Below, in pieces: positions 1,052-39,729 of a stretch of 41,955 nucleotides of DNA (its first letter is position 1; every line of letters begins with the position of its first letter). Source of the stretch: Welwitschia mirabilis (lineage: Eukaryota). Made by a program: the position numbers and the translations under genes. The DNA is taken from the NCBI GenBank assembly GCA_051453625.1, contig JBOZIK010000001.1, positions 29,546,581 through 29,588,535 on the forward strand, in the 5' to 3' direction. The notes beneath the pieces are model-generated. The model worked only from the letters and a program-made list of their open reading frames with translations. It did no database searches and was not told where the DNA came from.

Positions 1052-1304
1052 AAGAGCGGAGAGCAGAGATCGGAGAGCAGAGAACGAGGGAGAACAAAGA
1101 ACACGAGGAAGAGCAGAGAGTGAAGAGTGGAGAGTGGAGAACGCAAGGAAGATAGCCGCAAAGGAGAAGTCCGCTAGCACAGTGCTCACTAAGCCTTGGC
1201 AGAAGGAATAGAAGAGCAAGGCAAGTTGGGTAATGTGAGTTTCACTAGTTGCAAGCCCACATCGACACCCCAAGAAAAAAACCCTCGCCTAGGATTTCAA
1301 CCCC

Positions 1305-7136: not shown

Positions 7137-7693
7137 GCTTTGTCAATATCTTAATAGATAATTATAGAAATATAAATTAATTACTCATTTTTTTACATTT
7201 ATTTTCTAATGTTTTTTAATAAATAAAATATTTAAAAGTAATTACACATTAGAAAAATTACTATTTTTACATTTTCATGTTCATAACACAATCTTAGATT
7301 AACAAAACAAATTTCACTACTTCATACTAACTAATTAGTAAGTTGCAGTGTTTTTAACCTATGCCTCTATTCTGAAAATTTAACATTAACTATAAGAAAT
7401 GTGGTAAAGTTTCTATAATTAGTTATATAATAATTTAAATTAATGAACTGATGAATATAATAGATAAACTAATTATCTACAATGCATTTTAACTAAATTT
7501 ACTACCTCAAATCAAGGTAAAAATAAAAATCAAATCAATTAAAAAAATGTTTATTATGAGCCTTAGGATTACCATAAAGGAGTACTAGTCTAAAAGAGAT
7601 TCTTTTGGATTAACCTTTACTCCTAATAAGATAGGTCTAATGCATAATGAATGAAAAATATATTGTGATGTAGACTAATGCAAAATAAACATA
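7137..7693 (+). repeat. 1.23-kb tandem repeat, copy 1, right part
   Basis: Co-linear with 8368-8923. For example gagccttaggattacc..aaaggagta.tagtctaaaagagatt occurs at 7558 and 8790. Confidence 0.9.
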
Positions 7694-8923
7694 GTCATAT
7701 TATAGTCTCCATGAATTGGTGCAATGAAGGTAAATAAAAGAAAGCATAGCTCAAGCATGGTCATTAGGACATAATACTTTATTCAAGACTCACATGATTA
7801 TATTATAAGTCAAGAAAGTTATTGATAAATTAAGGAACATTTATGTTACTTAAATTACTAAGGTGAGAACTCTTACAAGCATGCATATTCAAAGTAAGAT
7901 AAAGAAAAAAGATAAAAAGCATATTTTTTCCAATAAAATATTATTTCTAGGAAATGTAACTTAAGGATAATAATAAAAACTTATCTTATATACTTAAAAT
8001 CCTTATAAAATTTTATCTAATAATTTCTCTATAATTTAAAATATTACTTATAACATTTGTGGGCTCTAAGGAGACATCATAGTCAAAAATTAGTAATTAA
8101 TTAATTATGAAGTAGAACATAAATTATAGTAGTTTTTCATAAATAAGATGCATAATAGCATCTTTATAATCTAACTTAAACTATTTTGGAATTCTAAAAC
8201 AATTATTTGTAAGATCATCATTTACGGTTAAAAACTAACAAATTTTCTAAAATTAGAATCTAACTACACTACACTAAAATCACCATAACTTTTAAAATAC
8301 TTTGAATTTTAAAATGATTTAAGATGTTTTGGAAAGTTATTTAATGCCTATAACTTAGGATGCCCAACTTTGTAGATATGTTAATAGATAGTTACAAAAA
8401 TATAAATTAATTACTTACTATTTTCTACATTTATTTTCTAACATATTTTAAGAATTTTTTTAAAATAATTACATATCAAAAATTACTATTTTTACATTTT
8501 TATGTTCATAACACAAGCTTAGAATTACAAAAAGAAAAAAAAAACTCACCACTTTATACCTACTAATTGATAAGTTATAGTGTTTTTAACCTATGTCTCT
8601 ATCTAAAATTTAACTTTAGCTATAAGAAATATGGTAAAGTTTCTACAATTAATTATACAATAATTTAAATTAGTGAATAAATGAATATAATAGCTAAACT
8701 AATTATCTACAACACATCTTAACTAAATTTACAACATAAAATCAATATAGAAAGAAAAATCAAATCAATTAAAAAAACCATTTACTTTGAGCCTTAGGAT
8801 TACCTTAAAGGAGTAGTAGTCTAAAAGAGATTTTTGAGGATCATACTTTGCACCTAACAAGATAGATCTAATGAATAATTAATGAAAAATATATTTTTAT
8901 GTATATTAATGCCAAATAAATAT
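7694..8923 (+). repeat. 1.23-kb tandem repeat, copy 2 (uninterrupted; shows the empty LINE site)
   Basis: Matches 373-1051 joined to 7137-7693 along its whole length. Confidence 0.9.
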
Positions 8924-10289: not shown

Positions 10290-12853
10290 AAATTTAAAAA
10301 TATTTGGGTATTAATTTTTTATTGTTTCATCTATCTCCTAAGTATATTCATCAATACGATGATTACTCTATTTTATCTTTACTTAATGAATCTCTTTATT
10401 TCATAAATTAANNNNNNNNNNGCACTACTTCCAGCTTCTCTATAATTGAGCAATTTGGCTCCATTTAAATATGATACTAATTCAACATATAACAAGAATC
10501 TACAATATACTTTCTTAGCATACTTACATTAAAAACATCATGCATGTGCAATAATCGAGGAGGTAAAGCTAGCTTGTATGTAACAGGTCTAATTCTTTCC
10601 AATGTTTCAAATGATCTAATGAATCGAAAAGCTAGTTTTAATCTCTTAAATTCTCTTATTGCTGATTTCATTGGTGAAACTTTAAGAAATACATGATTAT
10701 CTATTTTAAACTCAAGATCCCTTCTTTGATGGTTTGCATACATCTTTTATTTATCTACTACTTCTTTAGGTCTATCCTTAATAATACTTATTTTAATTTC
10801 TAATTTTTGTAATATTTTTTATTCTATAATCAATCTTTCTTTAAATTTTGTCCATGAAATGGGTGCTTTGTATTTTCTTCTATATAGGGCTTTAAATAGA
10901 GCCATTTGAATTAAATCTAATAATTGTTACTGTATGCAAATTTTGCTAATGGTAGATACTCTTTTCAATGCTTGGAATAATTTAGAATACATACTCCAAG
11001 AAGATATTCTAAAATTTGATTAACTCTTTCTACCTAATCATCTATTTGAGAGTGAAATGTAGTGCTCATATTTAATTTGGTTCCTAAGCCCATTTGTAAT
11101 TCTTATCAAAACTTAGAAGTAAATTTTTATCTCTATTAAAGATAATCACTAAAAGCACATCATATAATTCAACATCATTTTAAATATATCATTAGCTATA
11201 TCCTTATCATCATAAGTAGATTTTATTGAAATAAAATATGCTAATTTAATTATCCTATTAGTTATCACCATGGTAGAATTATTACCTCTTTGAGTTTTTG
11301 GAAGTCCTCTAATAAAGTCCATATAAATCATGTCCCATTTATATTCTATAATCTCATAAGAATAAAGTAATCATACTGGATTTCTATGTTCTACTTTATT
11401 TATTGACAATTAAGACACCTTGACATACATTCTACTATATCTTTTTCATTCCTAGCCACTAAAATTTTTGTTTCATGTTTTGATATATTTTATTCCTATA
11501 AGACGACTTGCTATAGGTAGATTATAAAATTCAAACATTAACTTATGTCTAATTCCATTTACTTTAGGAACTAAAATCTTCCCTTCAATCTAATAATAAC
11601 CACTTGAATTAATACCGAAATGCTATAAATCTATTGGTTTTTCTAATTTGTTTTTGAATTTTTGATAATTCTCATCCCTTTTATATTCCTCTAAAATAAT
11701 GGTAGGAATTTGGATTTAAATTTTCAACTTTCCTATTGGTATACTTATCTTGCTGTTGTAGTTGTCACCCATAAATACTAAACCATTACATACCTTTCCT
11801 GACGTATCATATTCTTACATAAGCCACTACTAGTATCATGGTACTCTCCCCATCATGGTCTTCTATAGGTGGGCACTCCCTAATCACATCCTTAATCATT
11901 GTTGTACCCACAACAACAACTAGTGTATACATATATGATTACTTAAAGATAATCTTGTCTACTAAAAGCATCTTCAACCTTATTTTCCATAGCTTCATTA
12001 TATAAAATCTTTAGATCAAAATTACATAAAGAATCTCATCCATCTTCTTTGCCTAAGATTTAAGTTTAATTGAGTGAAAATGTATTTTAAACTCTTATGA
12101 TCTATTCAAACATAAATTCTTACACCATAGAAATAATGCTTTACAATTTTAAAGCAATAATTATTGTAGCTAATTCAAGATCATGAATATGATAATTTCT
12201 CTTATAAGTTTTAAGTTATTTTAATCTATAAGCTATTACTCTTTTACCTTGTTTAAGCACTGCTCCAAGACATTCTCTAGATGCATTAGTACAAGCTAAA
12301 AAGATCTTTGAATCATTTAGCATTGCTAAGACTAGAATACTAGTTAAGAATTATTTAAGATGACCAAATGACTATTGATATTTTTCTATTCATTGAAAGT
12401 CTTTATTTCTTCCTAAAAGGATTGTTAATAAAGAAGCTATGTTAAAGAAGTTGAATATAAACTAATAATAATACTTGACAAAACTAAGAAATGTTCTAAT
12501 CTCAATAATATTTGTAGGTATTGGCCATTCAATGATTATTCTAACTTTGTTTTGATCTACTGATATACCTTCATTGAATGTTACATGACCTAAAAATTAA
12601 ATGATTCCTTTCAAAAAGAATACTTTTTCATGTTAACATGTAATTAGTGATTCTATAAAGTTTGTAATACTATTCTTGAGTGTTTTTTGTTCTCTTCATA
12701 AGTCTCAAAATAAATGAGAATATTATCAATAGATACTATTACAAAAGAATTAAAATGTAGTTGAAAGATGTAGTTCATAAGATTTATAAAAACTACGAGG
12801 GCATTAGTTAAACTAAAAGGCATAATAGTAAATCATAATGCTCATAGCGATCT
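10290..12853 (-). pseudogene. Ty3/gypsy chromovirus (Tekay/Del-like) pol fragment: RT C-terminal half, RNase H, integrase, chromodomain
   Basis: RYEHY...MPFSLTNA..VFINLMN (~12770-12850), MDFIRGLPKTQRGNNS (11149-11331), YANHQRRDLEFKIDNHVFLKVSPMK...YKLALPPRL..MHDVFNVSMLRKY (10477-10743), chromodomain VKIK*SNHRIDEYT*EIDETIKN*YPNIF (~10297-10383). Cut within RT at 12853. Confidence 0.92.
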
Positions 12854-13833
12854 TGATGAGTGAAGATAATGATATAAATATTTCTTATTAATAAAATATT
12901 TTTATTCTTATAATCATATATTTTAGATAGTATTCAATATTTCTTCTTTAGTATTTAGGTTAATATACTAGCTAGTTAATAAGTTAGTTAGTTAGTATGT
13001 TAGTAGGTTAGCATATATATATATATATATTGTATCATTGTGTTACAAGTACAAAATGCCATTTGGCATTGAGGATGAGAGAAAAGACCAAGGTGGTAAA
13101 AAAAACAAGAACAACTTCAACCATAAACCTATCCTTTAGAAGCAAAGGAAGGAAGTAGAAGAACAAAAATATGCTAAAATGTATAAGTATAGGATCTCCA
13201 GGGTGAGGGAGGGCTCTTTTAGCAAAAAGGCTCTAGAAATAAGACCAAGCAATAGGTCAAAGAAAAGCTTTAGACATTCTAAAAAGGGTTTAGCAACATC
13301 TCTAATGTTTTAGTGTTACTTATAAAGGAAAACAAAAACTTATCAGTATATTTTTATGTAATGCTCTAGTATTTTAATATAAAGTTGAAAAGCTAATATT
13401 TTTGAAAAGTATTATGAACATGTTTTATTATTTGCAAAAAAGAGATTCTCTTTTACTTGCTCCTATTTACGTAGCTGAACATTAATTAGGATAATTACAA
13501 TACTTAGAAATAAGTATTATTTAGCGTTTAGTTAAACTTCTAATTATTCTTTTTCATTTTCTTCATTTCCCCATAATGTAATATATGTATTTAGCAAATT
13601 TATCAATTATCAACTTGACTAGTTCAAGTAACTTCATCATGAGTTTATCTTAATGATGCATTTTAAACTAAATTGTTAAAGTATTAGTGATCTCAACTAG
13701 TTCTTTAATAAATCTCTAATTTTAATTTAATTTTTTAAGCCTATTTTTGGTTAATAGCATCATAATTTTCTATATTTTTTCTGCATAATTTCTAGTATTT
13801 TCTATATTTATTTCAAAATATAAGCTTTTATCA
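12854..13833 (+). repeat. 5' LTR of an Athila-like element
   Basis: Begins tgatgagtg exactly where the Tekay RT frame stops and ends ttttatca (TGAT...ATCA termini), immediately before a PBS-like motif. Contains (tagt)n and (ta)n microsatellites at ~12970-13030. Confidence 0.65.
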
Positions 13834-13869: not shown

Positions 13870-16566
13870 TGGAGATGAAGAAATATATAATCCAACAAGA
13901 TAGTCTAGGAAAATGATGGAATGGGAGACATAAGTTCATTAAAAATCTTGGCAAACATAATTTGGATGAGTAGACTAGAAGTAAGATTAAAATAGAAATA
14001 GAAGAGAAAGAATTTAGTATGGATGAAACTACTATTGGAAAGACTGTGAAAGAATAAATATTTTCTAAATTAATGAGTAAAATAGAATAGTGATTGCGTA
14101 TTCTTCTCAAATCACCTATTACCCAAGGAGAATCTTCCTAAATAGCTAGGATAAATAAACCTAAAAAAATCTTTGTAATAGGATGCTATTAAGAAGATAA
14201 TGTAAATTTAAGTGCTTTGAATTATGAAACTCATTGGCTAGAAGATTTAAGTCCTATTAATCTTATAGCCTTAGCATATCCAAAATAAAGTGAGAAATAT
14301 AAATATAATATCAATACCAACTTGAGGGTAAGAAATCAGGAGAACCTTTGTTGCATTTAAGTCTATTTAATGCCTTCTACAAAACAAATTTATCTTAACT
14401 CAGAATTGGATTTTCTGAGGTATTTTACTTTTTTTTTTTTAAGGGGATGCTCAACTATGATATCATAGAAATCGTAGTCATGCTTTTTTAGTTCATAAGA
14501 AACTTCTAAAAATGATTTCTTGGGTAAATTTCAACCCATAAGAATAGCTAGAGATTTAAGAGAATAAATTTTGAATATTAAATAGAAAGGTAATGAAAGG
14601 TCTCATGAGTTCATGGATAGATATAATATATTATTACCTAAATATCCTAGCCATGGAATTGTAGCTAGAAAATGAGTCAAACCTTTACTTAAAGCATTAC
14701 ATAATTCAACTTTAAAGGAATTAGTCTTATCATGCAGAGGAAGCATCAAAACAAAGAATGTTTAAGAGGTAATAGAAGTTATTACTCAGTTTTATAATAG
14801 GAGTCAAGAATGGGAATAAAAGATTGACAAGAAAAAAAGAATAAATGAATTATTTTCCTCAAAGAAGTAGCTAAAAAGATGAGTTATAGTATGATGGAAA
14901 AATTTAATCAATTAGTTATACAACACTTTAAAGAGAAAGGAGGACCTATATGTGAATATTATGAAGATAATAATAAAGGAATAAAATATTCTTAAATACA
15001 AGAATTTTTTCCTTGGTTGGATACTAATAGAGTATATTCAAATATAAGAAATCAACCTTAAGCAAGAAAAAAGAAACATATCCTTAACCAAGTAGGAAAT
15101 GGAAAGGTGAGATAGAAAAGCTATTATAAAACTATGTAAATTCTAAAAGACAAGAGAAACTTAATTATTAAAGGAATTTGATAAACAAAGATTTAAAAGA
15201 CATGAAAGAAAAATCAAAGGTAAGGAAGAAAAAAGAAAAAATTCCTGCTCAACCTCAACCAAATCCAAGGAAAGAAAGAAGTAAGGTAGTGACTATGAGA
15301 TCTAAAAAACAAATAGTAGTAGATAAAGACCAAAAAAAGAAAAACATTTGAACAACTCTCTAGTTCATGAAAGAATAAATATGGGAAAGGAAGTAGTAGT
15401 TAATGACTTAGTGGATCCTCTATCTTTTCTAATGAGAACTAAACAAATATAACATCCAAAAATTAAATGGGACATAGAATATTTAACAAAAGTTTTAGAA
15501 GATATAATAATTTACTACCTCTTTTAAAATTATTAAAAGATGTACCTATGTATTGAAAGTAAATGAAGTGCATGTGCTTACAAAAAAGGAATAAGAAGAA
15601 AAGTAAGAAAGAAAAACAAATTGAATTGGTTAGAAAATATCAAGTTTCATGGGCATCCACACAAGTTCTTAAAAATAAATACATAAAACATACAGTGATC
15701 TAGGAACACCTATGATAGACATAAAAATTAATGGAAAGGTCAAATTATAAGCACTTGTGGATCTCGAAGTAAGTGTTAATGTGCAGGCATATGAGACTTA
15801 TGAGGAATTTGAAAAGCCAAAATTGATACCTTACCAAGGAAAAGTATACCTGGTAGATGGTTTAACACTATTTAACATTATGGATTGATCTATTTGATAG
15901 ATTGTTTAGTAATGAATACTTAAAGATATAACCATGTAGTAATTTTAGAAAGACCTTAAATGGCTACTATAGATGCTACTACTTATTATAGAAAAGGGAC
16001 AATGGAAATCAGTCTAGAAGATTCTAAAAAAGAGATTAAGTTATCTGATGCAGTAGTTGTAGAGGTGATGGCAAATAACACAGAAGCTAAAACCAATGCA
16101 ATTATAATACAAGAGATTAGCATGATGTTAAATAAGTAAAATAAAGAAAAGTATGAAGAATAAAGTTTACCATCTCAAGAAATATAAAAGCCTCCACTTA
16201 AAAAGGGATTAGAGTATATTAAAGTAGCTTCAAATAAACCTTTGATTATAAATAGTTCTTTAACTCATTGTCAAGAAAAAATCTTAAAAGAATGCTAATC
16301 AGAAGAAAAGGAGATTTTTATTAGGATCATACTAATATTAAGAAAATATATCCAAAAGTATGTTAACATAGAATCTATNNNNNNNNNNNNNAGTTTTATT
16401 ACAATAGTACCAAAGAAAGAAAATAAATGTAGAGTATATATAGATCTTGGAATGTTGAATACAACAACTTATAAAGATCAATGTCCTCTTCAATTTATAG
16501 GTCAAGTTTTAGAAAGAGTACTTAGACAGTAATATTACAACTTTCTTGATGGATATAGTGGATATA
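13870..16566 (+). pseudogene. Athila-like gag, protease and start of RT, heavily decayed
   Basis: KNDFLGKFQP, ILNIK*KGNERSHEFMDRYNILLPKYPSHGI (Retrotrans_gag-like), PAQPQPNPR and VVTMRSKK, protease DLGTPMIDI...ALVDLEVSVNV, RT IVPKKENKCRVYIDLGMLNTTTYKDQCPLQFIGQVLE...YYNFLDGYSGY. Ends abruptly at 16566. Confidence 0.9.
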
Positions 16567-16981
16567 TATAATGTTCCAAATTTATTAATTATGTAATAAA
16601 GGATGTTAAATGATAATCAAGCATAGTTAATACAAATGTGATTGGATGTGACCCAAATATGAAAGGATGTATTCCTTCATTATGCAATATAAGCTTATGG
16701 CATTAGGTGGGGATAGATAGACTGAGTGGATGTAACCAGCGACAACTTGGCTAATGCCCAAGGGTCATAGGAGAGGGACTTAGGTCATAATCCATGTCTT
16801 TACCTTTGACCACTAGTCGAAAGCTATTGGCTAATGATGAGGAATGTAATATGCTACTATTAATAATAAAAGTCTTATTCTTTCTAAATTGTTCCTTGTT
16901 ATTCCTGTTGATTCTGGCATATTATTTTATATGTTCCTTTTTATGCAAAGTAATCTGGAATCAGTAAAATGGGACATTACA
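16567..16981 (+). repeat. 5' LTR (415 bp) of a chromovirus-like Ty3/gypsy element
   Basis: Terminal inverted repeats tataatgttcc and gggacattaca match at 9/11 (TG..CA with the left G mutated to A). Starts exactly at the Athila RT break and is followed by a PBS. An aataaa signal lies at ~16865. Confidence 0.88.
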
Positions 16982-16983
16982 TT

Positions 16984-16994
16984 TGGTATCAGAG
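16984..16994 (+). promoter_or_regulatory. Primer binding site, tRNA-iMet
   Basis: tggtatcagag, 2 nt after the LTR end; the canonical iMet PBS. Confidence 0.92.
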
Positions 16995-17095
16995 TAAACA
17001 ACAAGTACTAAAACTACTACTTAAGGGAAACAAGGAAGGAACTCTATTTTATAAATAAAACAAGTCTTATGTTAAAGGAAAAACAAGCCAAAGGT

Positions 17096-19496
17096 CTATA
17101 GTACATCAAAGGCATGAATATGATAATCAAAGCAAATAAGATGCCAGTGGATATAGAGCACATGATGCCTTAACAAGATGAACCAAATTACTACCGAGGA
17201 GGAAGAAGATCCTCCAAAGAGAAGAGAATAGGGTTGTAACCCTCTGTGCCTGGGATAGGAGGCTATGCCACCTGGAATAACTTCCATTCTAGTCGGCTAT
17301 GTGAAAATCACCATAGTACTAATCTCAACTGAAGAAGAACCTACTGTAGAATCTTCTCTAGTAATAGGATATGGTCACTTATAGAGCTTCATATGAAGCT
17401 TACTAAAAGCAATTAAAGTCCCCAACATATGCTCCNNNNNNNNNNATGACACAGTACATTGATGTGATTAATGGTAATGGCCAAATGATCTACACAGGCC
17501 TAAATTATCCTCTCCCTCTTGGCTAGCCAAGTAGACAAAGTAGTCTGATTTTCTTCTAATATAGCCATAAAGGAAGCATTTGCCCATGATCTATTCTCTA
17601 TTAAGTGCATGTTCTAAACTTGATTCTTTAGCATGCAAAGGAAATCACTCATGAACTCAAACTCCTCAACTCCATAAAGAGCCATGAAATAGAAGAACTT
17701 CATCATATTAACCATGTTGTAGAAGTCTCAGAATAGGATAGGACATTCATGTTATAGATAATAATGAGGAGCAAAACAAGTAGAACAACTATACTCAAAG
17801 TTTCATGATACATTCACTACCTTAGATTGACAATGGGTGTAGATGTCATCTAAGTGAGATGAATGCATAACCTTTATATGCAAGAGGCTAAAAAGGGATT
17901 TCTATTCTCCCAGTTGATTCATTAACTCCTCAATTAAGGTCTTCACCAATAAAAAGAGCTAATTAGTATAATAAGATACTTGTCCCTCTTCATTTTACAA
18001 TGGACTATGGAGCTATAAGTAGACCACAAAGAGGCTCTAGAGAACGGCAAGCAATAGGAGAACTATGACCTAAAGGCTGAAAACAAGAAATGGAATAGGA
18101 AATATCCCCCTAATCCATTAATGTATTAAAATTATCAAGTACCTCTTTCCCTTAAGAATTAGTAGGGAATAATAAATCCATGAAAAGTTCAGTGGAAGGA
18201 ATGAAAGAAAACTTTTCACTTATTGCAATGAATTCCTCCTCTAGCTACCAAAGGGAGAGCTTCCTCAGAGGTAATGTAGGAAAATCCATATCTTTCTCGA
18301 TCAAAGTCTCTAAGTAAGAAACCTAAAATAAAAGAAGAAAATGCCTAAGTTATAAAAAAAGAAAGAAAAGAAAAGAGAAATGAAAAGAAGACTTGGTAGT
18401 AAGTAATACCCCATGGGGATAGTGTCACAAAGAAAAGCTAAAGGATGCATCCTATTCTTGTTCTAGTTCTTAGGCACAGGTCAGTTAACTAGAGCTTTAT
18501 CACATTTTCAGTAGGAAAAGTATCACATTTTCAGTAGAAAAAGTCATAAGATCCCAAGACCTTACTCATATACAAACACAAAATAACAAAACCAGAGTCA
18601 TTAGAAATATCCTTTACATCAACAATCCTCAGCAAGAGCCCATATCTCAAATAGAATAGAAAAAGTATCATGAGATTTTTTTTAAGATTATAATCCATAA
18701 AACCTTTACCCTCCATATATGAAAAAGAGTAAGAATGAAGTATAGATTTAGTAGGAATCTCATGAGGAGAAAAAATAAAGAAGGAATCTATAGAAGTAGA
18801 TCTAAATGGCTATAGACATCCTAGACCCATAGAAGCAAAATATAAACCTAACAAGATGTAATCATAGAAACATTTTTTCCTATCTTCGTTTCTCTTTAAG
18901 TGGGACAACTAGAAAAGAGTAAAGAAATAGACAACTGAAGCCCAATCTAAAGAAATTCCACTAACTTAAAAGGTGAACAAGTAAATTATGTAAGTTAGAA
19001 TCTTGCTCACTTGATCATGAAGGAAGGCCCTACTAGTAATCAATTCTCCACAAGCAACAAAATACATAGTGGTTAAAATGGCAATAAAGATCCCATGATG
19101 ATGAGTGTCCACCTCCCATAAATATACAAAATCATCTAAATGATTATCCATAAAGTAATGATAGTCCTCATCAAAATGGAAAAATTTGGGAGAAACACGA
19201 TCATCTTCACTCATTTTAAAGAGTAGCATGATGCTCTCTTCTAAAATCTAGACTGGGTCATGACAAAGATGGGTAATGGTAATAGTGCATAGATTAAAAG
19301 AATAATAGAAGAAATCAAGAATGAAAAGAATCATGGAATAGCAAAGATAGAAGGATGGGAAGCCACAAAAATCTAAGAGATTGGAGGAGAAGATCCAAGA
19401 AAACCTTTGCTCTGAAGGTCATTATCATATTTCCAATTCTACAAACTTGACATTGGTAAAATTCCAAGAAATAGTGGGGCAAAGTCTTGAATCCAT
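17096..19496 (-). pseudogene. Antisense accessory gene in the gypsy 5' leader; N-terminal part resembles the plant-transposon accessory protein (Transposase_32/PMD-like) family; probably two exons
   Basis: An ATG at 19496 and track ORFs 18966-19229 and 18531-18716 all lie in one frame: 322 codons with 7 internal stops. Motifs include FILDFFYYSF, PV*ILEESIMLLFKM, GISLDWASVVYFFTLF*L and CFYDYILLGLYFASMG. Further stop-poor frames occur at ~18320-17900 and 17435-17096. The family assignment is by motif resemblance only. Confidence 0.6.
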
Positions 19497-19545
19497 ACTT
19501 TGACCAGAGAAGAAGTGCAGTCATGAACATTGAAGGAGAACTCAC

Positions 19546-19554
19546 ATTTATAGG
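19546..19554 (-). promoter_or_regulatory. TATA box of the antisense gene
   Basis: cctataaat on the minus strand, 50 nt upstream of the ATG at 19496, followed by a pyrimidine-rich leader. Confidence 0.55.
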
Positions 19555-19764
19555 CAGAGATAAGTTGTGGAAAGATCTAGACAAAATACCAAAAAAAGAT
19601 AGGAAAAACATTAAATAAATTAAAAAAAAGGAGAATTAAAAAAAAAATGATAAGGAAAAGGCTAAATAAAGAATAAAAAAGAGGAGCTACCGATTTGACT
19701 ATAAATTCATGTGAAAAATGAGATAAAAATGAGGAATTATAAGGCTATTTGTAGTGGTGGACTA

Positions 19765-19845
19765 AGGGTTAACCTGATCCTAGAGTAATAGTTAACTATA
19801 GTTAACTAAATCCTAGTTAAGTGTAATTAACTGAAGTTAATTATA
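19765..19845. repeat. 10-bp-period array of GTTAAC palindromes
   Basis: ggttaacc (19767), tagttaacta (19789, 19799), tagttaagtg (19814), taattaactg (19824), aagttaatta (19834). Confidence 0.75.
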
Positions 19846-19871
19846 GAAAAATCAAGATTCAGAACTGCAAT

Positions 19872-20586
19872 TAGACATCATACTTTGAAGCATGTCACAC
19901 TTCCAAAAGACCAATGTCGCACTTCGAAAGCCAACATCTCATTCCATTGAACCTGATGTCACATTCCTAGAAGGTAGATGTCACATTTTGAAGGTTGATA
20001 TCACACTCCACTGAACTCAATATCATACTCCCAAAAGGCCAATGTCACACTTCAAAGGCTAACATCACACTCAAAAGGTTGATGTCGCACATGGTATCAT
20101 CAAATTCGATGTCACACTCCAAAATCCCTTGAATGCCAATGTCACACTTAGGTGTCCAACATCATACTTGGATGCCCAATGTTGCACTTGCACCTGTTAG
20201 GCCTAGTTTCCATCATTGCTTCATAGAAATCACCTATTTCACTCACTTGCCTAAGGAACTCCAATGTTGCACTTAAGTGTCTGATGTCACACTTGGGTGT
20301 CTGATGTCACACTTATCCCCACCAGGTCGAGACTCTACAATCACTTCTTGATAATCATTTGTTTCATTCTCCTATGTAAGAAGCTCTAACATTACACTTG
20401 ATGACCTGATGTTATACTTAAGTGCTTGATGTTACACTTGGAGACCTGACATCACACTCATACCATAAATGCGCTCTAACCCCTAATGTAACTTAAGATA
20501 ATCCAAAATTCTTTCAAAACCTCTAACATTATACTTAGGTATCTGATGTCATACTCAGTACACACAGGTGTCTGATGTCATACTTG
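19872..20586 (+). repeat. Array of ~25 copies of a 20-22-bp unit with core (c/t)(tg/ca)a(tg/ca)tcacact
   Basis: Cores at e.g. 19911, 19931, 19953, 19995, 20017, 20039, 20059, 20079, 20106, 20136, 20156, 20176, 20261, 20281, 20301, 20386, 20406, 20426, 20446, 20523, 20543 and 20572. The right half has a ~125-bp higher-order period. Confidence 0.9.
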
Positions 20587-20733
20587 GGTTTTCACCATCA
20601 TTCCCAGATGCTGGATAATACATAGATCACCCTCCCACCCCAAAAAAAAACCTCTGGTAGTTGACACCATGCTAGCAAGGTTGTTACGGAACCTATTAAA
20701 AATTACTTTTCTAACTATTTTCTTAACTACAAG

Positions 20734-23700
20734 ATGGTTGTAAGTGCCTAACTACCACTAGCAATGCTATAAAAAGATAGCATTACTAGAAGGAAGGGAG
20801 AACAAGTAGAGAATACTTATAAAAGGAAGAGATATATGAGTTTAGAAGGACATCAAACTAACTAATGCATCATAGAACATAGGGTAAATAAACAAATAGA
20901 GGAATTGGAAAACCAAATCGACCATATTTACTTTTAGAATAAACTGTTAGCTAGTAGGATCAATAGCCTTCTCTTTCATTTAGAAGATAGATCTAAAGAA
21001 CATAACCTGAGGGCATTTCAATAGCCACAATCTACATCAAGACATTACACTTCCACAACTGCTATTAACCTATAGAATATTTAGATGNNNNNNNNNNNNN
21101 NNNNNNNNNNNNNNNNNNNNNNNNNNNNNNNNNNNNNNNNNNNNNNNNNNNNNNNNNNNNNNNNNNNNNNNNNNNNNNNNNNNNNNNNNNNNNNNNNNNN
21201 NNNNNNNNNNNNNNNNNNNNNNNNNNNNNNNNNNNNNNNNNNNNNNNNNNNNNNNNNNNNNNNNNNNNNNNNNNNNNNNNNNNNNNNNNNNNNNNNNNNN
21301 NNNNNNNNNNNNNNNNNNNNNNNNNNNNNNNNNNNNNNNNNNNNNNNNNNNNNNNNNNNNNNNNNNNNNNNNNNNNNNNNNNNNNNNNNNNNNNNNNNNN
21401 NNNNNNNNNNNNNNNNNNNNNNNNNNNNNNNNNNNNNNNNNNNNNNNNNNNNNNNNNNNNNNNNNNNNNNNNNNNNNNNNNNNNNNNNNNNNNNNNNNNN
21501 NNNNNNNNNNNNNNNNNNNNNNNNNNNTTATTAAACATAGAGGCCAACTTTTAAGCTTTTCTGACAAATAAAACCAACCTTTCCAATATTAAACAACATA
21601 AAGGAGATAAAATTGTAAAGATGATATGTTTAAGGATCTATGAAGGTAAATCTGGAACAAGAGAAGAAGCTATATTTTGGATCTGGCAATTAAAGAATTA
21701 CTTCAAACTTTGAAATATACCTCAAAAAAGGTGATGCATATATGCTACTACTTTTCTTGTAGGAAATGCATAGGAATGATGATCCAGATGTCAATAGAAA
21801 CACCGGTAAAAAATACCATGGGATATATTCATTGAAGAGTTTAAAAGAAAATTTATCCCAAAATACTTCATTAAAGATTAAATGATACAGTTCCAATGCC
21901 TATGCTTGGGAAAGCATTCATTGAATGAACATTAGTCTAAATTCTAGTGCCTCATGAAGTACTAGAAGAATTTCATAGAAATGTAGCTGATTAACAATTT
22001 TATTGGGATCTTACCACCCAAACTCAAAAGCATTTTACAAACTTTAGATATCAAGCTCATAGAAGATGCTTATCATAAGATGAGACACTATCTCTAAGAG
22101 AATCGATGGATAGAACAGCAACACCCCTAAGGGGATAGACACCTTCTTTTAAATGCGCCACTGGTAAGAAAGCCATAGAGAACAAATCTCACTTATCATA
22201 AGTACCAAAAGAAAGGTGACATTATTAGGAATTACCCATCCCAAGCATGACCCCCAAATCTACTTTAGCACAATCAGTTCAATCTTTACAAAATTTGTCC
22301 ATGCCATCTAAAAAGGTATATGCTATCATCCAAATAGATCTGATTTACAATCAATATTCCATCCTAGAATTATATGATCATATTTCATCTTTGAATGTTT
22401 CATTCTTAGTTGATAGTAATGCATCTCACAATTTCATTTTTCCCACATTATTTTATAAATTAAATATCATTCCATTCAAAGAATAAGAATACATCATAGG
22501 ATTTATAAGGGACAGTATTCTTACATAAGATGGGATTGTCTCCCTTAGTAGTTATATCATTCATGATTTACACTTTAGGAATTAAATTTTATTTTATGTC
22601 TTTTAAATTGGGGAGTACCATGTCATTCTAAGAATTCTTTTAATAATTAGATATAATGTTTGAATCAATTTTTGTTAAAGGATCTTATTATTATCTACTT
22701 CATTTGAAGAATAAATCTTTAAAGAAAAGGGGAGGAGTAAGAACATATCTTTAACCTCACCTACATAGATCATGTTAAAAAGAAACAAGTATTCATTGCC
22801 CTGGTATAGGCAAAAAATCATAAAGAAGATCTTTTTATACCAGAAGAACTGTAAGATTTCTATAATATGTTTAAAGACTCAAAAACACTATCACCTAATA
22901 GGAAAGTACATTATGTAATCAACTTAGGTTCTAGAGCACAACCAATAGCATAAGCACCTTATCACTTCTCAGTAGTAGAACTAAGAGAATTAAAGTTACA
23001 AATTGAGCACCTATTATTAAAAGGGAAAATTCACTCTAGTGTGTCATCATGGGAAGCACTAGTACTTTTTTATAAGAAGAATGATGGTATCTTACAGCTT
23101 TTCATTGACTATAGATAGTTCAATAAGGTAACCATCAAGAACAAGTACTCATTACCAAGAATTGATGATCCATTAGATCAACTACAAGGAGCCAAATACT
23201 TTTCAAAGATCAATTTAAAATCTAGTTACCATCAGATCTGCATCAAGAATGAAGACATCTACAAAAGTGTTTTTAGAATAAGATATGATTATTACAAGTT
23301 TTTAGTGATATCTTTTAGTTTAATAAATACTCTAGATACTTTTATGAATTTAATAAATGATAATTTTTAATCTTNNNNNNNNNNCTTATTTGGATAAATG
23401 CATGGTTCCATTTTTAGAGATTTTCTAATATATTCTAGAAATTAGGATGATCAAATTACATACTTGAAGAAAGTTCTACAGGTTTTATCTAAGCATAATT
23501 TCAAGTTAAAGTTAAGCAAATATGAGTTCTTTCAAATAGAAATTAGTTATCTAGACCATATCATCTCTAGTAAAGGAATCACAACAAATCCATTCAAAGT
23601 ATAAGAGGTAAGAGAATGGCTAAAATTAAAGGATGCTATGCAAGTTCAAAGTTTCTTAGGATTGACTAGCTTCTATCGAAAATTTATTCCATAATTCTCT

Positions 23701-24740
23701 TAACTTACAACTTCATTAACAGATTTGACTAAAGTAATCAATACATTTAATTTCAATGACAAATGCAAGGAAGCATTTCTCAGGTTAAAGTTACTACTCA
23801 TAACAACACTTTTCCTTAAGATCATAGATATAAACAAACCATTTACAATTATCACTGATGCTTCTACTCAAGGAATAGGACTCGTCCTTAACTAGGATGA
23901 TCAATTAATTGCTTATGAATCATGGAAGTTAAACTAGCATGGGAGGAACTATCCCATCCATGATTTGAAATTGCTAGCCATAGTATGTGATTTGACAGTT
24001 TGGATGTACTATCTTATGAGAAGTAAATTCCTTCTCAAAAAAAATCATAAAAGCTTGAAATATGTTTAGAAATAACCTCTTTTAAATGTGTGCCTTAGAA
24101 GATGGAGTAATGTACTTACAGAATACAACTTCAAATTATAGTACACCCTTGGAAAAGAAAACAAAGTATTAGATGCTTTGAGCAAAATATGGTGCATGTT
24201 AACCATCACTATTACATCTGACCTATCTACCTTTTTTAAAATGTCATTGACTAACAATCTATGCTTCAAAGAATTAAATTAACAAGTCCAAGAGGGAAAA
24301 GAAGTGGATACATATATGATGTTATGAGATGAATACCTATTAAAAAGAATATGTTTGTGCATTCTATAAGGTCTATGGAGAAGAAAGATAATGTTTGAAC
24401 TGCATGAAGTTCCATATGTAGTACATTTTGGATTCATCAAAAATTATCACCAACTATTAAAATACTACTTTGGTTTTAAACTAAAGAAGATTTAAAGAAA
24501 TAGATCTATAATTACCCTATATGTCAATAGATGAAGATTAATCAAGGAAAACCCATTGATCTCTTTTAACTATTGGAAATAACATAGTGAAAATGGAAGG
24601 AAATATCCATGGATTTCATCAGTAGATTACCTCTCACTACAAGATAACATGATGCAATTTTCATTTTTGTAGATATGTTGATTAAGATGGTTCATTTTAT
24701 TATAGTTCAAAGATCCATGTTGCAATGGGTATTTATGCAA
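20734..24740 (+). pseudogene. Chromovirus-like Ty3/gypsy gag-pol (gag, PR, RT, RNase H, integrase N-terminal half), decayed
   Basis: gag YEGKSGTREEAIFWIWQLKNYF and PWDIFIEEFKRKFIPKYF. Protease FLVDSNASHNFI (~22404). RT [55 protein letters not shown]. RNase H TDAST.GIG...IAYES.KL...NYPIHDLKLLAIV. Integrase KWKEISMDFI..LP....HDAIFIFVD. Truncated at 24740. The start position is approximate. Confidence 0.93.
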
Positions 24741-25819
24741 TGTTACATCCTGAGTAAAATCCTGTTAATCACAAATATAATGCATACACACCACATGTTG
24801 ATATAGACGGGAGTAATTCAAATGTTGTAATCCATCAAAGATCAATGTAGGAAATAAGAGAGTTTCTTTTCACAAAGAAATTCTTATACCCTAACTATAG
24901 AAATAACTTGCAATGTATGAAAGTAAAATGTAATAACTTGTACAAAGCTAATTTAGGAAAATAAAACAACAATGCACTTAATCTAAACTAATCAAGCATA
25001 ACCTTGATAAAGGTTGCCCTCATAACCTATATAACTAAAGAAACTATTACCAGTTTAGAAGCAACATAAGCTATAAGGATGAATAACAATCATACATTGA
25101 AATTAGAAAAAGTATATTTTGTATNNNNNNNNNNTATGAACCACTTTCATGTTATAAAATAGCCACATCTCAATGGAGAAAACATCATCCAACATCAAGG
25201 AAAATGTCTCTCTACAACTGCAAAGATGGATCTCTAGTCCTTCAATTCCATCATAAGAATTTTAGGTGCAAATGAAGATAAGCAGGAGTCGAGGATAAGA
25301 TCACTATTTATTGACTTATAAGCATACAATAAAATAGACAAAAAGGAATGTGTAAACCATAACGTTCTCATAAGAAGAAATGGAAACACATGTGATAGAA
25401 GATAAGTAAATTTTTAGTACAGATGTTACAATATTATTGTCTAGTTTGTCATCCAGATGATAGAAGAGATGATGCCACCTCATAATTAATCCACGTTAGC
25501 TATCAAGTTGATTATAGTTAGCATCCTTGTTGGTACTCTTTGCTCAGTTATTCATATAGTATCCAAATGATGTAGTGGATGATGATCTTTGATAGATCTT
25601 TAATCAGTGCATCAGCCTTAATGTTTTACAAGAAGTTGTCTTAGGAATGTAAAGTATTCAGAATTGTTAAGAATGCTATAAACCATCATGGAAATTACAT
25701 GTTTTCATTCTTTTTATCTTAGCTCTTAATTATCATAGAAATCAAGCATTGACTTATCTAATTACCTATAAAACAACTTGAAATATCCTATAAAATACAT
25801 ATAATTTATCAATATAACA
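24741..25819 (-). repeat. LTR of an Athila-like family (minus orientation)
   Basis: Termini tgttacat...atataaca. 24741-25595 is the reverse complement of 40808-41650, which is followed by an Athila PBS. For example aagcataaccttgataaaggttgccctcataacctatat (24995) pairs with ~41358-41395. Confidence 0.85.
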
Positions 25820-27160
25820 TCTTACTATTTGTGGTAAAAACAAGATCAGTGGTTTATAAATGAGTACTTTATATCTTGAAGTATTTTATAATTATTACAT
25901 TATCAAGTATTATTAGTTTGCAACCATCATTTGAGTTGATGCTCTAGATATAGCTATCATATGTTAATGTCAATTAGTACATTATCATTTTCATCAATGT
26001 TATTTAAATAAAATCATGATGTTTTATTAATTGAGAATTATGTGTCTTTAATTAAAAATAAAAAACTACTAGTAAGTGATTGAATTCAAATAGAATAGGC
26101 TCTAATGCAATCTCTGTTTTTCTATTTATTAAGTTAGACAATTTTAAAGTTATTAAACATATTTTTTCTATTTATCATAGAATCATAACATTAGATTAAT
26201 TAATTTAATCTTTTAAAAAATGATTTGTATTTCTTTTTTTTAAAAATAAAGTGTCAAGTTTTGAGAGTTTAACATTTAGGACCTAAGTAGTTTAATGTTT
26301 GTTCTCATGATTCTTTAGCTTATTGTAGTTTTTTTCCCTTAATTTGTTATGTTATATTGGTGTGCTTTTATTATGCACTTTATCTTTTGCCTTTAATGAA
26401 TTTATTACAATCTTTTAGATACTAAAATATGTTGTACTTTCTCTACTTGGCTTTTACTTTTTATTTTACATCCCTTAAAACCTTTAACTTCTTTCCTTTA
26501 ATTATCACATATAAACTAACTTTGGATTGAATTTATCTACCTCATGGATGTGGAATCTTTAAAGTCTTTAAAAGATTGGATTCGTTTGAAATGAATTTGT
26601 ATATTAAAAATATTTTTTCCATAAAACTAAAACCATAGTTCTAAATTTAATGCATACATTTTTCATGATGTTTAATTGGAATACATTTTTCATATGCTAA
26701 AATGATATGCCTTCTATGTTCAATAATGTAAGTATCATTTATACTTAAGTATTATGTTTCATATCTTTTTCAATTTGGCTTGTTTCTATTATTTTCCACC
26801 TTTTTTAGTTATGGAGTAATAAATTCTTAATGAAGGACTATGTTGTGAAGCCATATTGGCCATATTTAACATCATGTTTGGAGTATGTTTTAGATCTATT
26901 TAAGCAATTTTTTGATCAATTGAAAATAAAATTGGACTTGCTATTAGAATGAGTAAAAAAGAGTAGATTTCTAACATTTCTAACCCTTTAGAAATAATTT
27001 TTGAAACATGTTCCATTTATGTTTCTTAAGATAGTGTCTTAATATCCAGACAATAATGGAATGTGATAACATTAAAATGTTTTAGCAATTATCATAATGT
27101 CCAATTGGGACTTATATGATTAATTTGATGCATTTGAATTTATTTATTATGATTTGAAAT

Positions 27161-28149
27161 TGATAAGTCAATCTTCAACTAACATATCATGACTAAATCT
27201 GATTTTGATGAGAAACATTCATTGCTAAAAGTAAGTTACTATTGTAAAGTTACTATAGTATAGTTACCATAGCAAGTACTATAGCAATTACTATATCTAT
27301 AATCTACCTCATTGTCCATACAATAATTAGATGATGATACTAAGTTACTATAGTGGATCTACTATTATAAAGTTATTATAATAGGGTACTGTAGTAGCTA
27401 CTCTAGTTATCATTCACCTATTTGTCTAGACGATATTCAAAGAATGATAAATATTACATACAAATAGAAACCCCCCCTCCCCCCTTCTCTCCGTTTCCTC
27501 TAATAGTCATCCATCTTATCATCTAGATGATACAAGCAAATAATAATAAAGAATTACACTAGAAAGACATATAAAGTTTAGTTATCTACTATAAGAAAAA
27601 ATTACATTATAGCAATATCATCTCCTATCTCATCTGGATGACACCTAGAAGGAAGATAGCTTTAATGAATGTAAAACATATTCTATCTATTACAAAGTTA
27701 TTAATATGATCACATCTTGTTAGTTACTACTCCTTGCTAATCTAAACTAATAATCCAAAACTATAAATACCCCTCCTTAGGTATTTGATTTCGCATCTTT
27801 GGCATCAATTATTATTGTAATATTTGAGATTTATTTAGTAAGGGATCCATTTATCTTAGCAAAGAAGCTTATCTTGGTGTTGGACTATGTTTGTTCCATT
27901 GAGTAGTGACTNNNNNNNNNNNNNNNNNNNNNNNNNNNNNNNNNNNNNNNNNNNNNNNNNNNNNNNNNNNNNNNNNNNNNNNNNNNNNNNNNNNNNNNNN
28001 NNNNNNNNNNNCCAACTTATTAGCTAATAAAATAGCTAAGACAATTAAGGAAATCATCTCAAAAATATTTTTAAAATTTAATATAGATACATATACTGGG
28101 TTTTGAAAAATTAGATAGATTAAACATTTCACCTATCAAAAGCTTAACA
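27161..28149 (+). repeat. Putative LTR (SIRE/copia-like), boundaries tentative
   Basis: Starts tgataag and ends cttaaca, with ttttgatgagaaaca near the 5' end. Repeated tactatag and tcatctagatga motifs lie upstream of the TATA-like ctataaatacccc (27761). No TSD, PBS or PPT seen. Confidence 0.4.
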
Positions 28150-28489
28150 GTCAGTTATTTGGGTCACTGTCTAAATGATAAAGGGAAAGACATGCTTAGA
28201 AAAAGTTTTTGAAATCTAGAAATTGTGACAGAACTTTTATTTTTGTAGATAGTCAATAATGTAATTAAATAGCCTCCCACTAAATTAAGTAGTAATGAAT
28301 GAAAAATTACGCAAGTAAAATAAATCATCATCATAACATGTAAAAGAGTAAAAAATAAACAGGAAAAATTATATGCAAATTAATACATCATACTGGAAAA
28401 ATAAAGTTTCTATATCATATCAAAAGAAAGTTTTCAATACAAAAATGTATAAAAGGGAAGATACAGAATAATAATACAAAATCATTTCC

Positions 28490-39690: not shown

Positions 39691-39729
39691 TTACTATACA
39701 TACTTAGTATTGAACAGATTGTTATCCCT

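Follow-up and report, generated by a model that had tools for sequence, protein, structure and literature searches.

Relic of an antisense extra reading frame beside a variable tandem array, possibly parts of one old chromovirus-like Ty3/gypsy copy, in Welwitschia mirabilis

Plant LTR retrotransposons carry many extra open reading frames (ORFs), most of them orphans without a functional explanation. For the additional ORFs lying 5' of gag in Tekay elements, Steinbauerova et al. 2011 (Genetica) is cited. These ORFs, located between the LTR and gag, are typical of Tekay-clade chromoviruses and family-specific in sequence, with examples in sunflower (Tekay 13-2), rice (RIRE3, RIRE8, and Retrosat-2), maize (Tekay), and sorghum (Sb7) (PMC11728184). 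Neumann et al. 2019, covering 314 gypsy groups, report that 21.4% of all eORF proteins have a CDD match and already provide a category for 5' extra ORFs in reverse orientation, eORF-5'R (PMC6317226). The layouts already known are sense 5' ORFs (Tekay) and antisense 3' ORFs accompanied by arrays (Retand, Grande). Among DNA transposons, VANDAL21 encodes VANC, an anti-silencing protein whose target motifs are arrayed in the element's own noncoding DNA. Tandem repeats have also been described in UTRs adjoining gag, chromoviruses included (10.1101/2021.07.15.452536). A first-pass annotation of the DNA studied here had described chromovirus leaders as usually short and noncoding and extra ORFs as best known from Ogre, Retand/Tat, and Athila, a background that is incomplete in view of the Tekay 5' extra ORFs (PMC11728184) and the 5' reverse category (PMC6317226).

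The DNA analyzed, hereafter the window, is a 42-kb stretch (41,955 nucleotides) of a gapped draft scaffold of Welwitschia mirabilis, which homology mapping resolved into a mosaic of truncated elements (Table 1). Our preferred reading, tentative and held with a little less than even confidence, is that an old copy of a chromovirus-like Ty3/gypsy element carries, in its 5' internal region, an orphan extra ORF in reverse orientation together with a hypervariable UTR repeat. The region would then be the 5' internal part of a single old, dead, 3'-truncated copy with the order LTR, iMet primer binding site (PBS), ~3.7 to 4.4 kb of internal DNA, gag, protease, RT-RNase H, and integrase start. Its internal part would hold the opposite-strand relic, of at least ~430 codons and with no recognizable domain, and, between the start of this ORF and gag, a ~700-bp array of a 20-bp unit.

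Table 1. Positions of the features discussed, numbered from the first nucleotide of the window
Feature	Position	Strand	Basis or remark
Putative 5' LTR, ~410 bp, TG...CA	16572-16981 (first-pass annotation: 16567-16981)	+	Unpaired in the window
iMet-type PBS, TGGTATCAGAGT	16984-16995	+	11 of 12 bases match tRNA-iMet, 1 mismatch
10-N scaffold gap	17436-17445		N map; splits LTR/PBS plus 440 bp from the ORF/array block
Decayed antisense extra ORF	17955-19604	-	Stop depletion, three-base periodicity
TATAAAT motif	19546-19552	-	~50 nt upstream of ATG 19496; without evidential weight
Micro-array (array 1), GTTAAC/GTTAAT	19768-19841		5 GTTAAY sites in 74 bp; 10-bp unit x2.1 at 19788-19808
Main tandem array (array 2)	19874-20585	+	12-nt motif, 23 strict copies and 2 with one mismatch; 20-bp unit
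Possible gag N-terminal part	20734-21087	+	ATGs 20734 and 20836 in one frame; weak
440-N gap	21088-21527		Two sides joined by read contigs
Decayed gag-pol, chromovirus-like Ty3/gypsy	21612-24749	+	Pfam, tblastn
gag	21612-22085	+	PF03732, E = 0.0067
Protease	22250-22711	+	tblastn with polyproteins
RT-RNase H	22855-24489	+	RVT_1 2.6e-9, RT_RNaseH 1.1e-20
Integrase start	to 24749	+	Homology ends at ~24749

The antisense stretch is a genuine, decayed reading frame, and not the intact divergent gene starting at ATG 19496 that had been proposed for it. Its core (P0001; 18207-19496 on the minus strand) has 12 stops in 430 codons and remains open for longest over 93 aa (18969-19247) and 92 aa (18534-18809). 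The frame opened by ATG 19496 runs for 23 codons into TGA TAA TGA at codons 24 to 26; a frame-shifted continuation toward 17446 is possible. Between 18217 and 19417, stop density was 1 to 3 per 100 codons compared with 5 to 12 in the other two minus-strand frames. Across the window, 91 of 5956 windows of 430 codons contained 14 stops or fewer and these fell at four loci only, the other three being known retroelement ORFs, namely a LINE (2703-6482) and two gypsy pol genes (22711-24480, and 34994-36883 on the minus strand). The relic was as stop-poor as the element's own pol, the best windows of which likewise had 12 stops per 430 codons. Three-base periodicity (chi2 18.5 to 21.4, G being overrepresented at codon position 1) exceeded that of the decayed pol and gag (8.6 to 12.5) and of noncoding controls (1.5 to 3.5). 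The ORF and gag-pol had the same observed/expected CpG (0.09), which, together with their equal stop load, suggests that the two are of similar age.

It is improbable, given these data, that the frame was never a gene and that an open antisense frame arose as a by-product of an A-rich sense strand in an expanded UTR leader with tandem repeats. The minus strand is T-rich and poor in A and G, a composition that leaves fewer stops, with T at 0.39 to 0.46 of each codon position, unusual for a gene; F, L, S, and I abound in the translation, its "membrane-like" segments are compositional, and homologue, domain, and confident fold are all lacking, with low recognition in the Atlas search. However, the depletion of stops is frame-specific (30 and 36 stops in the other two minus-strand frames over the ORF), control regions equally rich in T had 23 to 42 stops per 430 codons, no noncoding locus in the window came down to 14, and the frame has a periodicity that places G at codon position 1.

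No relative of the ORF was recovered. Pfam searches of six frames of 16995-21087 (E ≤ 0.1) found no family, a search with P0001 at E ≤ 10 none, and seven further single-frame ORF pieces a sole chance-level match, to PF15088 (E = 0.21). The PMD profile PF10536 was absent from every frame searched, including the ORF pieces at E ≤ 10, so that the link to PMD proteins drawn by the first-pass annotation is not supported, and Transposase_28 (PF04195) was undetected in the ORF or the six frames. phmmer with the ORF against 1.84 billion representatives gave 0 matches, the 93-aa open piece found no usable match in the Atlas, and P0001 had no relatives in viral contigs or metagenome contigs. In the same homology searches, used as controls, the element's own gag was also without matches and its RT had no relative above 47% identity; hence, the orphan status of the ORF is weak evidence. 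AlphaFold2 returned a fold of P0001 that was unusable (mean pLDDT 41, pTM 0.22). A multi-pass membrane protein was considered and rejected, as other frames and T-rich controls displayed 4 to 12 hydrophobic segments compared with 6 in the ORF. Searches of the whole window with Rfam (gathering thresholds) and ARAGORN found nothing.

Gag of LTR elements is read from LTR-driven genomic RNA, with no promoter beside its ATG. The bidirectional promoter that had been envisaged between the ORF and gag is therefore not upheld, nor is the TATA box as promoter evidence, since TATAAAT occurred at chance frequency (36 in the window, 41 expected).

Both motif arrays do lie between ATG 19496 on the minus strand and ATG 20734, put forward as the start of gag, and the larger, placed at 19872-20586 in the first-pass annotation, is real. 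The motif RAYRTYRYAYWY had 31 matches in the window compared with 5.6 expected, a count reached in 0 of 100 shuffles; 23 of the 31 fell in the main array, all on the plus strand and 0 on its minus strand. Copies are mostly 20 bp apart (exactly so for 11 of the 22 spacings, with 3 more at 22 bp), and TRF reported periods of 20 and 64. Higher-order periods are ~64 bp in the first third of the array and ~125 bp in the rest, where triplets or quadruplets start at 20138, 20263, 20388, and 20525 (125, 125, and 137 bp apart). The second array, proposed at 19765-19845, amounts to a small local cluster of five sites, with GTTAAY not enriched across the window (54 compared with 64 expected). Two former CpGs per motif of the main array are suggested by a TG/CA signature at motif positions 3-4 (TG 15, CA 6, TA 2) and 6-7 (CA 15, TA 4, CG 2, TG 2). 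The description of the arrays as CpG palindromes is at most partly borne out: only 6 CpGs are left in the main array, and array 1 has no CpG signal.

Array length differs among genomic copies. We scrutinized Logan read contigs (~300 nt, from four runs), which are too short to span the block, and 7 of the 15 joints listed fell inside the main array, with skips and back-steps of 52 to 434 nt in contigs of all four runs. Head-to-tail units in a noncoding internal region with variable copy number are the marks of a UTR tandem repeat, and taken alone the main array is an ordinary one. Its predicted RNA folding was unexceptional (z = -1.38, equalled by 2 of 20 shuffles). No other copy of the LTR, leader, or array was found in the window, and among metagenome contigs a degenerate three-unit pattern of the motif occurred at 3 loci, the one examined being a three-unit chance repeat on an unrelated, GC-rich contig. 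Read contigs covered 30 of 30 bins of 14000-27911, with 48,034 to 83,930 contigs per run (2 organisms, 3 studies), a depth not usable as copy number; the whole block is repeated in two related genomes.

At the 5' side, the TG...CA stretch adjoining the PBS, which begins TGTTCC and finishes ATTACA, bears out part of the LTR assignment; no second copy was found within the window (blastn, word size 9, E ≤ 1e-3). It is the only LTR-like stretch there, and neither a 3' LTR nor a target-site duplication was found in the window, where several downstream N gaps could hide an LTR. The iMet PBS reported at 16984 was confirmed 2 nt after the ...CA end: compared with a consensus that we take to represent the tRNA-Met primer site, TGGTATCAGAGT was the sole match with at most one mismatch on either strand of the 42 kb. 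An iMet PBS is consistent with chromoviruses (PMC6317226; cranberry preprint 10.1101/2021.07.15.452536).

At the 3' side, RVT_1, RT_RNaseH, and RT_RNaseH_2 share one frame in the gypsy-type pol order, tblastn placed polyprotein residues ~600 to 1270 at 22855-24749, and the best relatives were chromovirus-type polyproteins (41 to 47% identity). Many read contigs diverge at 24743. Neither a match to the chromodomain PF00385 nor any homology was found past 24749, an absence that concerns this truncated or interrupted copy and not its family. The start of gag, first proposed at ~20734, is uncertain. The possible N-terminal frame has 4 to 5 stops per 100 codons compared with 5 to 13 in the other plus-strand frames, and no homology match was found in 20734-21087; gag homology to other elements begins at 21612. 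Because homologues put the start at least 108 to 145 codons before 21813, it would lie inside the N gap or, if that gap is spurious, at ~20.95 to 21.05 kb. Likewise, the ~3.7 kb earlier given from PBS to gag is a distance that crosses the 10-N gap and ends ahead of the 440-N gap.

LTR-PBS and gag-pol point the same way and follow each other as expected, which supports one element, and "candidate accessory module" is a fair description of an opposite-strand coding relic and a real array lying between them. According to the N map, the gap-free contig 17446-21087 carries the ORF together with the two arrays and what may be the N-terminus of gag. Five read contigs from three of the four runs join 21081 to 21528 as a skip with no strand change (shorter side 32 to 40 nt), and the orientation of the contig relative to gag is fixed thereby. 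Among the joints listed, no read contig bridges the 10-N gap. The LTR/PBS is linked to the block across this gap only, which counts against our preferred reading.

This joint also bears on the prospect that the 3.6-kb contig is misoriented or chimeric and that the ORF is truly sense, an ordinary Tekay-type 5' extra ORF. Tekay LTRs are long, unlike the short LTR (~410 bp) here, and with the joint backing the given orientation we regard this prospect as quite improbable, despite gaps on both sides of the contig. The ~430 codons are comparable to the ~400-aa sense 5' aORFs of Tekay (PMC11728184). The known chromovirus 5' extra ORFs in that source are sense, not antisense, which counts against the preferred reading as well.

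The main rival, possible but rather unlikely, is that the block from 17446 to ~20650 derives from another element, the best candidate being the pol-to-3'LTR region of a Tat/Retand-like (OTA) element, joined via nested insertion, deletion, or scaffolding, in which case the ORF and array would be ordinary 3' features of another lineage. A possible source is a plus-strand element immediately upstream, with protease and RT start at 15600-16566, that is cut at 16567 (its RT breaks off at ~16566-16572); we take its RT start motif, ...YNFLDGYSGY, to be of Athila/Tat type. The AT skew of the block (0.25) is nearer to that of the upstream element (0.13 to 0.26) than to that of gag-pol (0.05 to 0.15), N gaps flank the block in a window that is a mosaic of truncated elements, and downstream of the array come an A9 run (20642-20650) and a TG (20655), loosely resembling a PPT and LTR. 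Gymnosperm and other Tat lineages carry 3' antisense eORFs (PMC4408406), and the Tat/Retand-type 3' end likewise combines antisense ORF, tandem repeats, A-run, and TG (PMC11963269), a resemblance that counts against a single element. Adjacency of parts in so mosaic a window may be secondary, a further point against the preferred reading.

However, a foreign fragment would need at least two rearrangements, LTR-PBS and gag-pol would have come to lie in this order and in one orientation by coincidence, and neither PMD nor Transposase_28 was detected. The A-run is just 9 purines, 4 nt from the TG, 20587-21087 had no match elsewhere in the window and thus forms no LTR pair, and read contigs join 21081 straight to the gag side. 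As to boundaries of the block, terminal inverted repeats or LTR pairs were limited to short, low-identity pairs of 15 to 31 nt, none at plausible ends. The remaining half of the interrupted upstream RT was not found: no plus-strand RT besides the element's own occurs in 20600-29971, and none in 30934-40503.

The first-pass annotation had gone further and envisaged a methylation-sensitive, VANC-like or PMD-like factor binding its own element's CpG-palindrome array against silencing, with the array as a bidirectional control region. We consider this view highly improbable, as we do its boldest form, in which a chromovirus-type family of this large, heavily methylated plant genome would have carried a regulatory cassette in its leader, with an antisense, lineage-specific DNA-binding protein and the ~25 phased, CpG-bearing palindromic sites that it recognized, to resist or sense methylation, as an LTR-retrotransposon counterpart of VANDAL VANC. 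In its favor, the copies are regularly phased at 20 bp in one orientation, have two probable former CpGs in a core of ACGT type, and lie immediately ahead of the start of the ORF. PMC11728184 speculates, taking VANDAL as its model, that extra ORFs of retrotransposons may counter silencing, and the proteins of Retand antisense ORFs are predicted to bind DNA (PMC11963269). On the other hand, neither PMD nor another DNA-binding domain was found, phasing is a property of any tandem repeat, array length varies freely between copies, and the copy is dead, with CpG loss that is window-wide (observed/expected 0.04 to 0.25) and not array-specific.

Under the single-element reading preferred here, the ORF would have been transcribed, while the family was active, from an antisense promoter inside the element, located in the repeats and A/T-rich stretch that precede the ORF, on the model of Grande gene23 and the Retand antisense ORFs, and by the same analogy its product may have been a lineage-specific accessory protein. 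The simplest view of the array is that of a hypervariable tandem repeat in a UTR, such as LTR elements generate and vary during replication, and its units would once have carried two CpGs, since lost through methylation-driven deamination, as throughout the window.

If the block proves integral to, and conserved in, a chromovirus-like family, the known layouts would gain one in which a 5' extra ORF is antisense and adjoins a motif array, and a compact ORF-plus-array pair would be suited to the question of whether a retrotransposon protein acts on its own DNA. In the literature consulted, which for Neumann et al. 2019 comprised the text, we found no description of this layout in a chromovirus, and this is not a claim of absence. 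At present the locus is one decayed copy on a gapped draft scaffold, a pointer toward younger copies and not a finding in itself. Antisense ORF and array are parts of kinds familiar from other plant retrotransposons; a tie between the two, or joint action, is not supported by the present data.

Compared with known systems, the relic resembles Tekay 5' aORFs in its place, after the 5' LTR/PBS and ahead of gag in a chromovirus-type element, in its length of ~400 codons, and in its lack of domains or cross-species similarity (PMC11728184). Unlike those aORFs, which are ORF(+), proline-rich, and disordered and have an NLS, it is antisense (no plus-strand frame being open), rich in F, L, and S, adjoined by a 700-bp array, and represented by one dead copy (PMC11728184). 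With Grande and Retand it shares an antisense ORF in a long internal noncoding region with family-specific tandem arrays of variable length; the Grande ORF has its own internal promoter, and a regulatory role has been proposed. In contrast, Grande and Retand ORFs follow pol in Tat-type elements, which are not chromoviruses, whereas the present block precedes gag in the scaffold and the pol beyond it is chromovirus-like. Transposase_28 is encoded by 97% of Retand clusters, and its profile PF04195 was undetected here. The likeness to VANDAL21 is one of layout only, an extra protein with arrayed short motifs; VANDAL is a DNA transposon, and no sequence, domain, or functional link to it was found here. 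The array, a short-unit repeat of variable copy number beside gag, shows no substantial difference from the hypervariable UTR repeats of plant LTR retrotransposons (10.1101/2021.07.15.452536; PMC7004042). In lineages without eORFs, internal regions are nearly all coding, and large, array-bearing noncoding regions belong mainly to non-chromoviruses (PMC6317226). By position and orientation, the relic fits eORF-5'R, the category for reverse-oriented extra ORFs of the 5' part that reach 250 codons or more, where eORFs are mostly orphans as well (PMC6317226).

[quoted passage not shown] As written the gene is absent; the frame is nevertheless a real, decayed coding relic. Over 18217-19417, it held 1 to 3 stops per 100 codons, compared with 5 to 12 in the other two minus-strand frames. 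With the window itself as the null (5956 windows of 430 codons across six frames, typically containing 25 to 31 stops), 91 windows had 14 or fewer, all within four loci that included this frame (Table), and equally T-rich control frames elsewhere held 23 to 42. Three-base periodicity (chi2 18.5 to 21.4, p 0.002 to 0.005), with G enriched at codon position 1, exceeded that of the decayed pol and gag (8.6 to 12.5) and was lacking in non-coding controls (1.5 to 3.5). Counting against a gene, the coding strand was unusually T-rich. The TATA box assigned to it is a chance-level motif, occurring 36 times in the window vs 41 expected.

Table. Positions of retroelement features and low-stop loci
Feature	Position	Strand	Remark
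LINE	1019-7694		DUF4283, RVT_1, zf-RVT
Low-stop locus: LINE ORF	2703-6482
Chromovirus fragment	10293-12895	-	tblastn; RT to C-terminal end of integrase
Gypsy protease and RT start (...YNFLDGYSGY)	15600-16566	+	cut at start of LTR-like stretch
Putative 5' LTR, TG...CA	16572-16981	+	neighbour's RT frame breaks exactly there
iMet PBS TGGTATCAGAGT	2 nt after LTR-like stretch	+	sole match with ≤1 mismatch in window
Low-stop locus: antisense frame	17955-19604	-	minimum 11 stops
gag	21612-22085	+	tblastn
Protease	22250-22711	+	tblastn
Low-stop locus: element's pol	22711-24480	+
RT-RNase H	22855-24489	+	tblastn
Integrase start	up to 24749	+	tblastn; homology ends there
Low-stop locus: pol	34994-36883	-
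Gypsy pol fragments	35210-36619 and 40867-41606	-

The antisense frame encodes nothing recognisable. No Pfam family was matched by the six frames at E ≤ 0.1 or by P0001 at E ≤ 10, and seven neighbouring single-frame pieces gave one chance-level match only (PF15088, E = 0.21). Neither PMD (PF10536) nor Transposase_28 (PF04195) was detected in the antisense frame, and the suggested PMD link is not supported, PF10536 being undetected in frames, P0001, and neighbouring pieces alike. A phmmer search against 1.84 billion representatives returned 0 matches, an Atlas search returned nothing, and AlphaFold2 gave P0001 a mean pLDDT of 41. A multi-pass membrane protein was considered and rejected, the apparent pattern being compositional. 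These missing homologues are a weak negative, because a search for homologues of the element's own gag found none and its RT had no relatives above 47% identity in the sequence collection. The family is therefore poorly represented there, and fast-evolving proteins of this copy fall below detection. Orphan status is the rule for such extra ORFs: the survey by Neumann et al. (PMC6317226) counts 314 gypsy groups and finds a CDD match in only 21.4% of all eORF proteins, and Tekay 5' ORFs show no similarity across species (PMC11728184).

The main array reported beside the frame (array 2, 19874-20585(+)) is real beyond doubt. Its motif, RAYRTYRYAYWY, matched 31 times in the window compared with 5.6 expected, a count reached by 0 of 100 shuffles; 23 matches lay in array 2, all on the plus strand and 0 on the minus strand, alongside two one-mismatch copies. 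Exactly 20 bp separated 11 of 22 neighbouring pairs, triplets and quadruplets recurred at 125, 125, and 137 bp, and TRF returned periods of 20 and 64. Both arrays had been described as CpG palindromes, and for array 2 it may fairly be inferred that two CpGs per unit were lost by deamination, because motif positions 3-4 read TG (15), CA (6), or TA (2), positions 6-7 read CA (15), TA (4), CG (2), or TG (2), and TG+CA was over-represented 1.6-fold (~1.0 elsewhere); six CpGs survive. Array 1 (19768-19841) is a small cluster of five GTTAAY sites without CpG signal, and GTTAAY was not enriched window-wide. CpG loss was equally severe across the AT-rich window (GC ~0.30; CpG observed/expected 0.16 overall and 0.04 to 0.25 by segment; 137 CpGs in 42 kb), and transitions were the main class of difference among genomic copies. 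Near-extinct CpG and this transition excess point to very old, heavily methylated repeats. Across four public runs, which came from three studies and two coded organisms, 7 of the 15 best-supported joints in the read contigs lay inside array 2, as skips or back-steps of 52 to 434 nt found in all four runs; array 2 length thus differs among genomic copies, a trait it shares with hypervariable UTR repeats in other LTR elements. Predicted RNA folding of array 2 was no better than that of shuffles (z -1.38), and Rfam and ARAGORN gave no match across the whole window. Single motif matches also occurred at 16973-16984 (the LTR end, overlapping the first PBS base) and 21041-21052 (just before the 440-N gap), and may be chance.

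Downstream of the arrays, fetched chromovirus-type polyproteins used as tblastn queries located gag-pol (Table), and Pfam matched RVT_1 (E = 2.6e-9), RNase H (E = 1.1e-20), and, weakly, Retrotrans_gag (E = 0.0067, ~21741-22005) on the plus strand. Many read contigs diverge at 24743, where pol homology ends. The copy is truncated or interrupted within integrase, which accounts for the lack of a visible chromodomain and 3' LTR; the remainder of integrase seems replaced by a far more abundant repeat. Summed contig depth rose ~tenfold at 24672-25135, with many contigs diverging at 24743, 25448, and 25807. The PBS was located with the iMet consensus as pattern. A possible gag N-terminus at 20734-21087(+) had 4 to 5 stops per 100 codons in frame, and homologues put the gag start at least 108 to 145 codons before 21813. 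This start is uncertain and would fall inside the 440-N gap or, if the gap is spurious, at ~20.95-21.05 kb; hence the PBS-to-gag distance of ~3.7-4.4 kb.

The window, which contains 12 N runs, is a mosaic of old retroelements, and the whole of 14000-27911 is a high-copy repeat in a large genome, since contigs of the four runs together covered 30 of 30 bins (48,034 to 83,930 contigs per run, mostly <90% alike). With 6 stops per 430 codons, the LINE-like ORF is the best preserved in the window. Direct repeats of ~640 bp (374-1018 and 7695-8335, 80-87% identical) bracket the LINE, so that a non-LTR element sits in an LTR-like frame; the LINE may be nested within another repeat, or the repeats may be a duplicated target. 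The minus-strand chromovirus fragment aligned with the polyprotein queries as far as their final residues, yet shared only ~31% identity with the pol at 22.9-24.7 kb. Further downstream lay a 196-bp unit repeated 1.9 times (29130-29507, 93% identity) and a 98-bp direct repeat pair (28647-28744 and 29504-29601, 95% identity, 857 bp apart with an N gap between). The RT start abutting the LTR-like stretch is presumably of a Tat/Athila-like lineage; the rest of this RT was not found on the plus strand of 20600-29971 and 30934-40503.

Such a mosaic, with a Tat/Athila-like RT start directly upstream, raises the alternative that the block at 17446-~20650, holding the relic and both arrays, is the Tat/Retand-type 3' region of another element. 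The lack of a 3' LTR and of a target-site duplication favours it, as does the succession of antisense ORF, tandem repeats, A-run, and TG, the known Tat/Retand 3' order (PMC11963269). However, this origin needs at least two rearrangements, the expected domains were not detected, and 20587-21087 has no LTR partner in the window; we consider it the main rival, somewhat less probable than a single element. ORF, both arrays, and the possible gag N-terminus lie on a single gap-free contig (17446-21087), and its orientation relative to gag is supported because 21081 runs directly into 21528 in five contigs, drawn from three of the four runs, which bridges the 440-N gap. None of the displayed contigs bridged the 10-N gap between LTR/PBS and block, and within the window neither a second copy of the putative LTR nor sister copies of leader or array were found; among viral and metagenome contigs P0001 had no relative. 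In favour of one element are LTR, PBS, gag, and pol in order and common orientation, and equal decay (the ORF and the best pol windows each hold 12 stops per 430 codons, and CpG observed/expected is 0.09 in the ORF as in gag-pol).

We tentatively favour, with slightly less than even confidence, the reading that this is what remains of an accessory region in a chromovirus-like element. Its extra ORF, antisense and specific to the lineage, would have been under an internal promoter lying in the A/T-rich DNA and repeats upstream, and the adjoining UTR tandem repeat may have held cis-elements of that promoter; an internal promoter was shown for Grande gene23 (PMC7264820). Expression and function of the antisense ORF are inferred by analogy. 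The bidirectional promoter proposed earlier is improbable in that form, since LTR-driven genomic RNA is the template for gag translation. A VANC-like, methylation-sensitive factor encoded by the element and acting on its own array, as in VANDAL, is drawn from the layout alone and seems highly improbable. The initial observation is partly confirmed and its interpretation partly supported.

It is too strong a premise that chromoviruses carry nothing but short non-coding leaders, because 5' extra ORF layouts have been published. Such ORFs are described as typical of Tekay chromoviruses (sense, ~400 aa), with conservation in 500 of the 523 elements of sunflower group 2 (PMC11728184), and a 5' reverse extra ORF category already features in the REXdb survey (PMC6317226). 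In our literature search, which for Neumann et al. 2019 excluded figures and supplements and did not extend to Steinbauerova et al. 2011, no paper described exactly this layout. If the block is integral, it would add to the known layouts a variant that combines antisense orientation, 5' side, and adjoining array. Unlike the sense 5' ORF of Tekay, the frame here is antisense and adjoins an array; Retand and Grande share the antisense ORF with tandem arrays (PMC11963269, PMC7264820), but theirs lie on the 3' side, whereas those described here lie on the 5' side.
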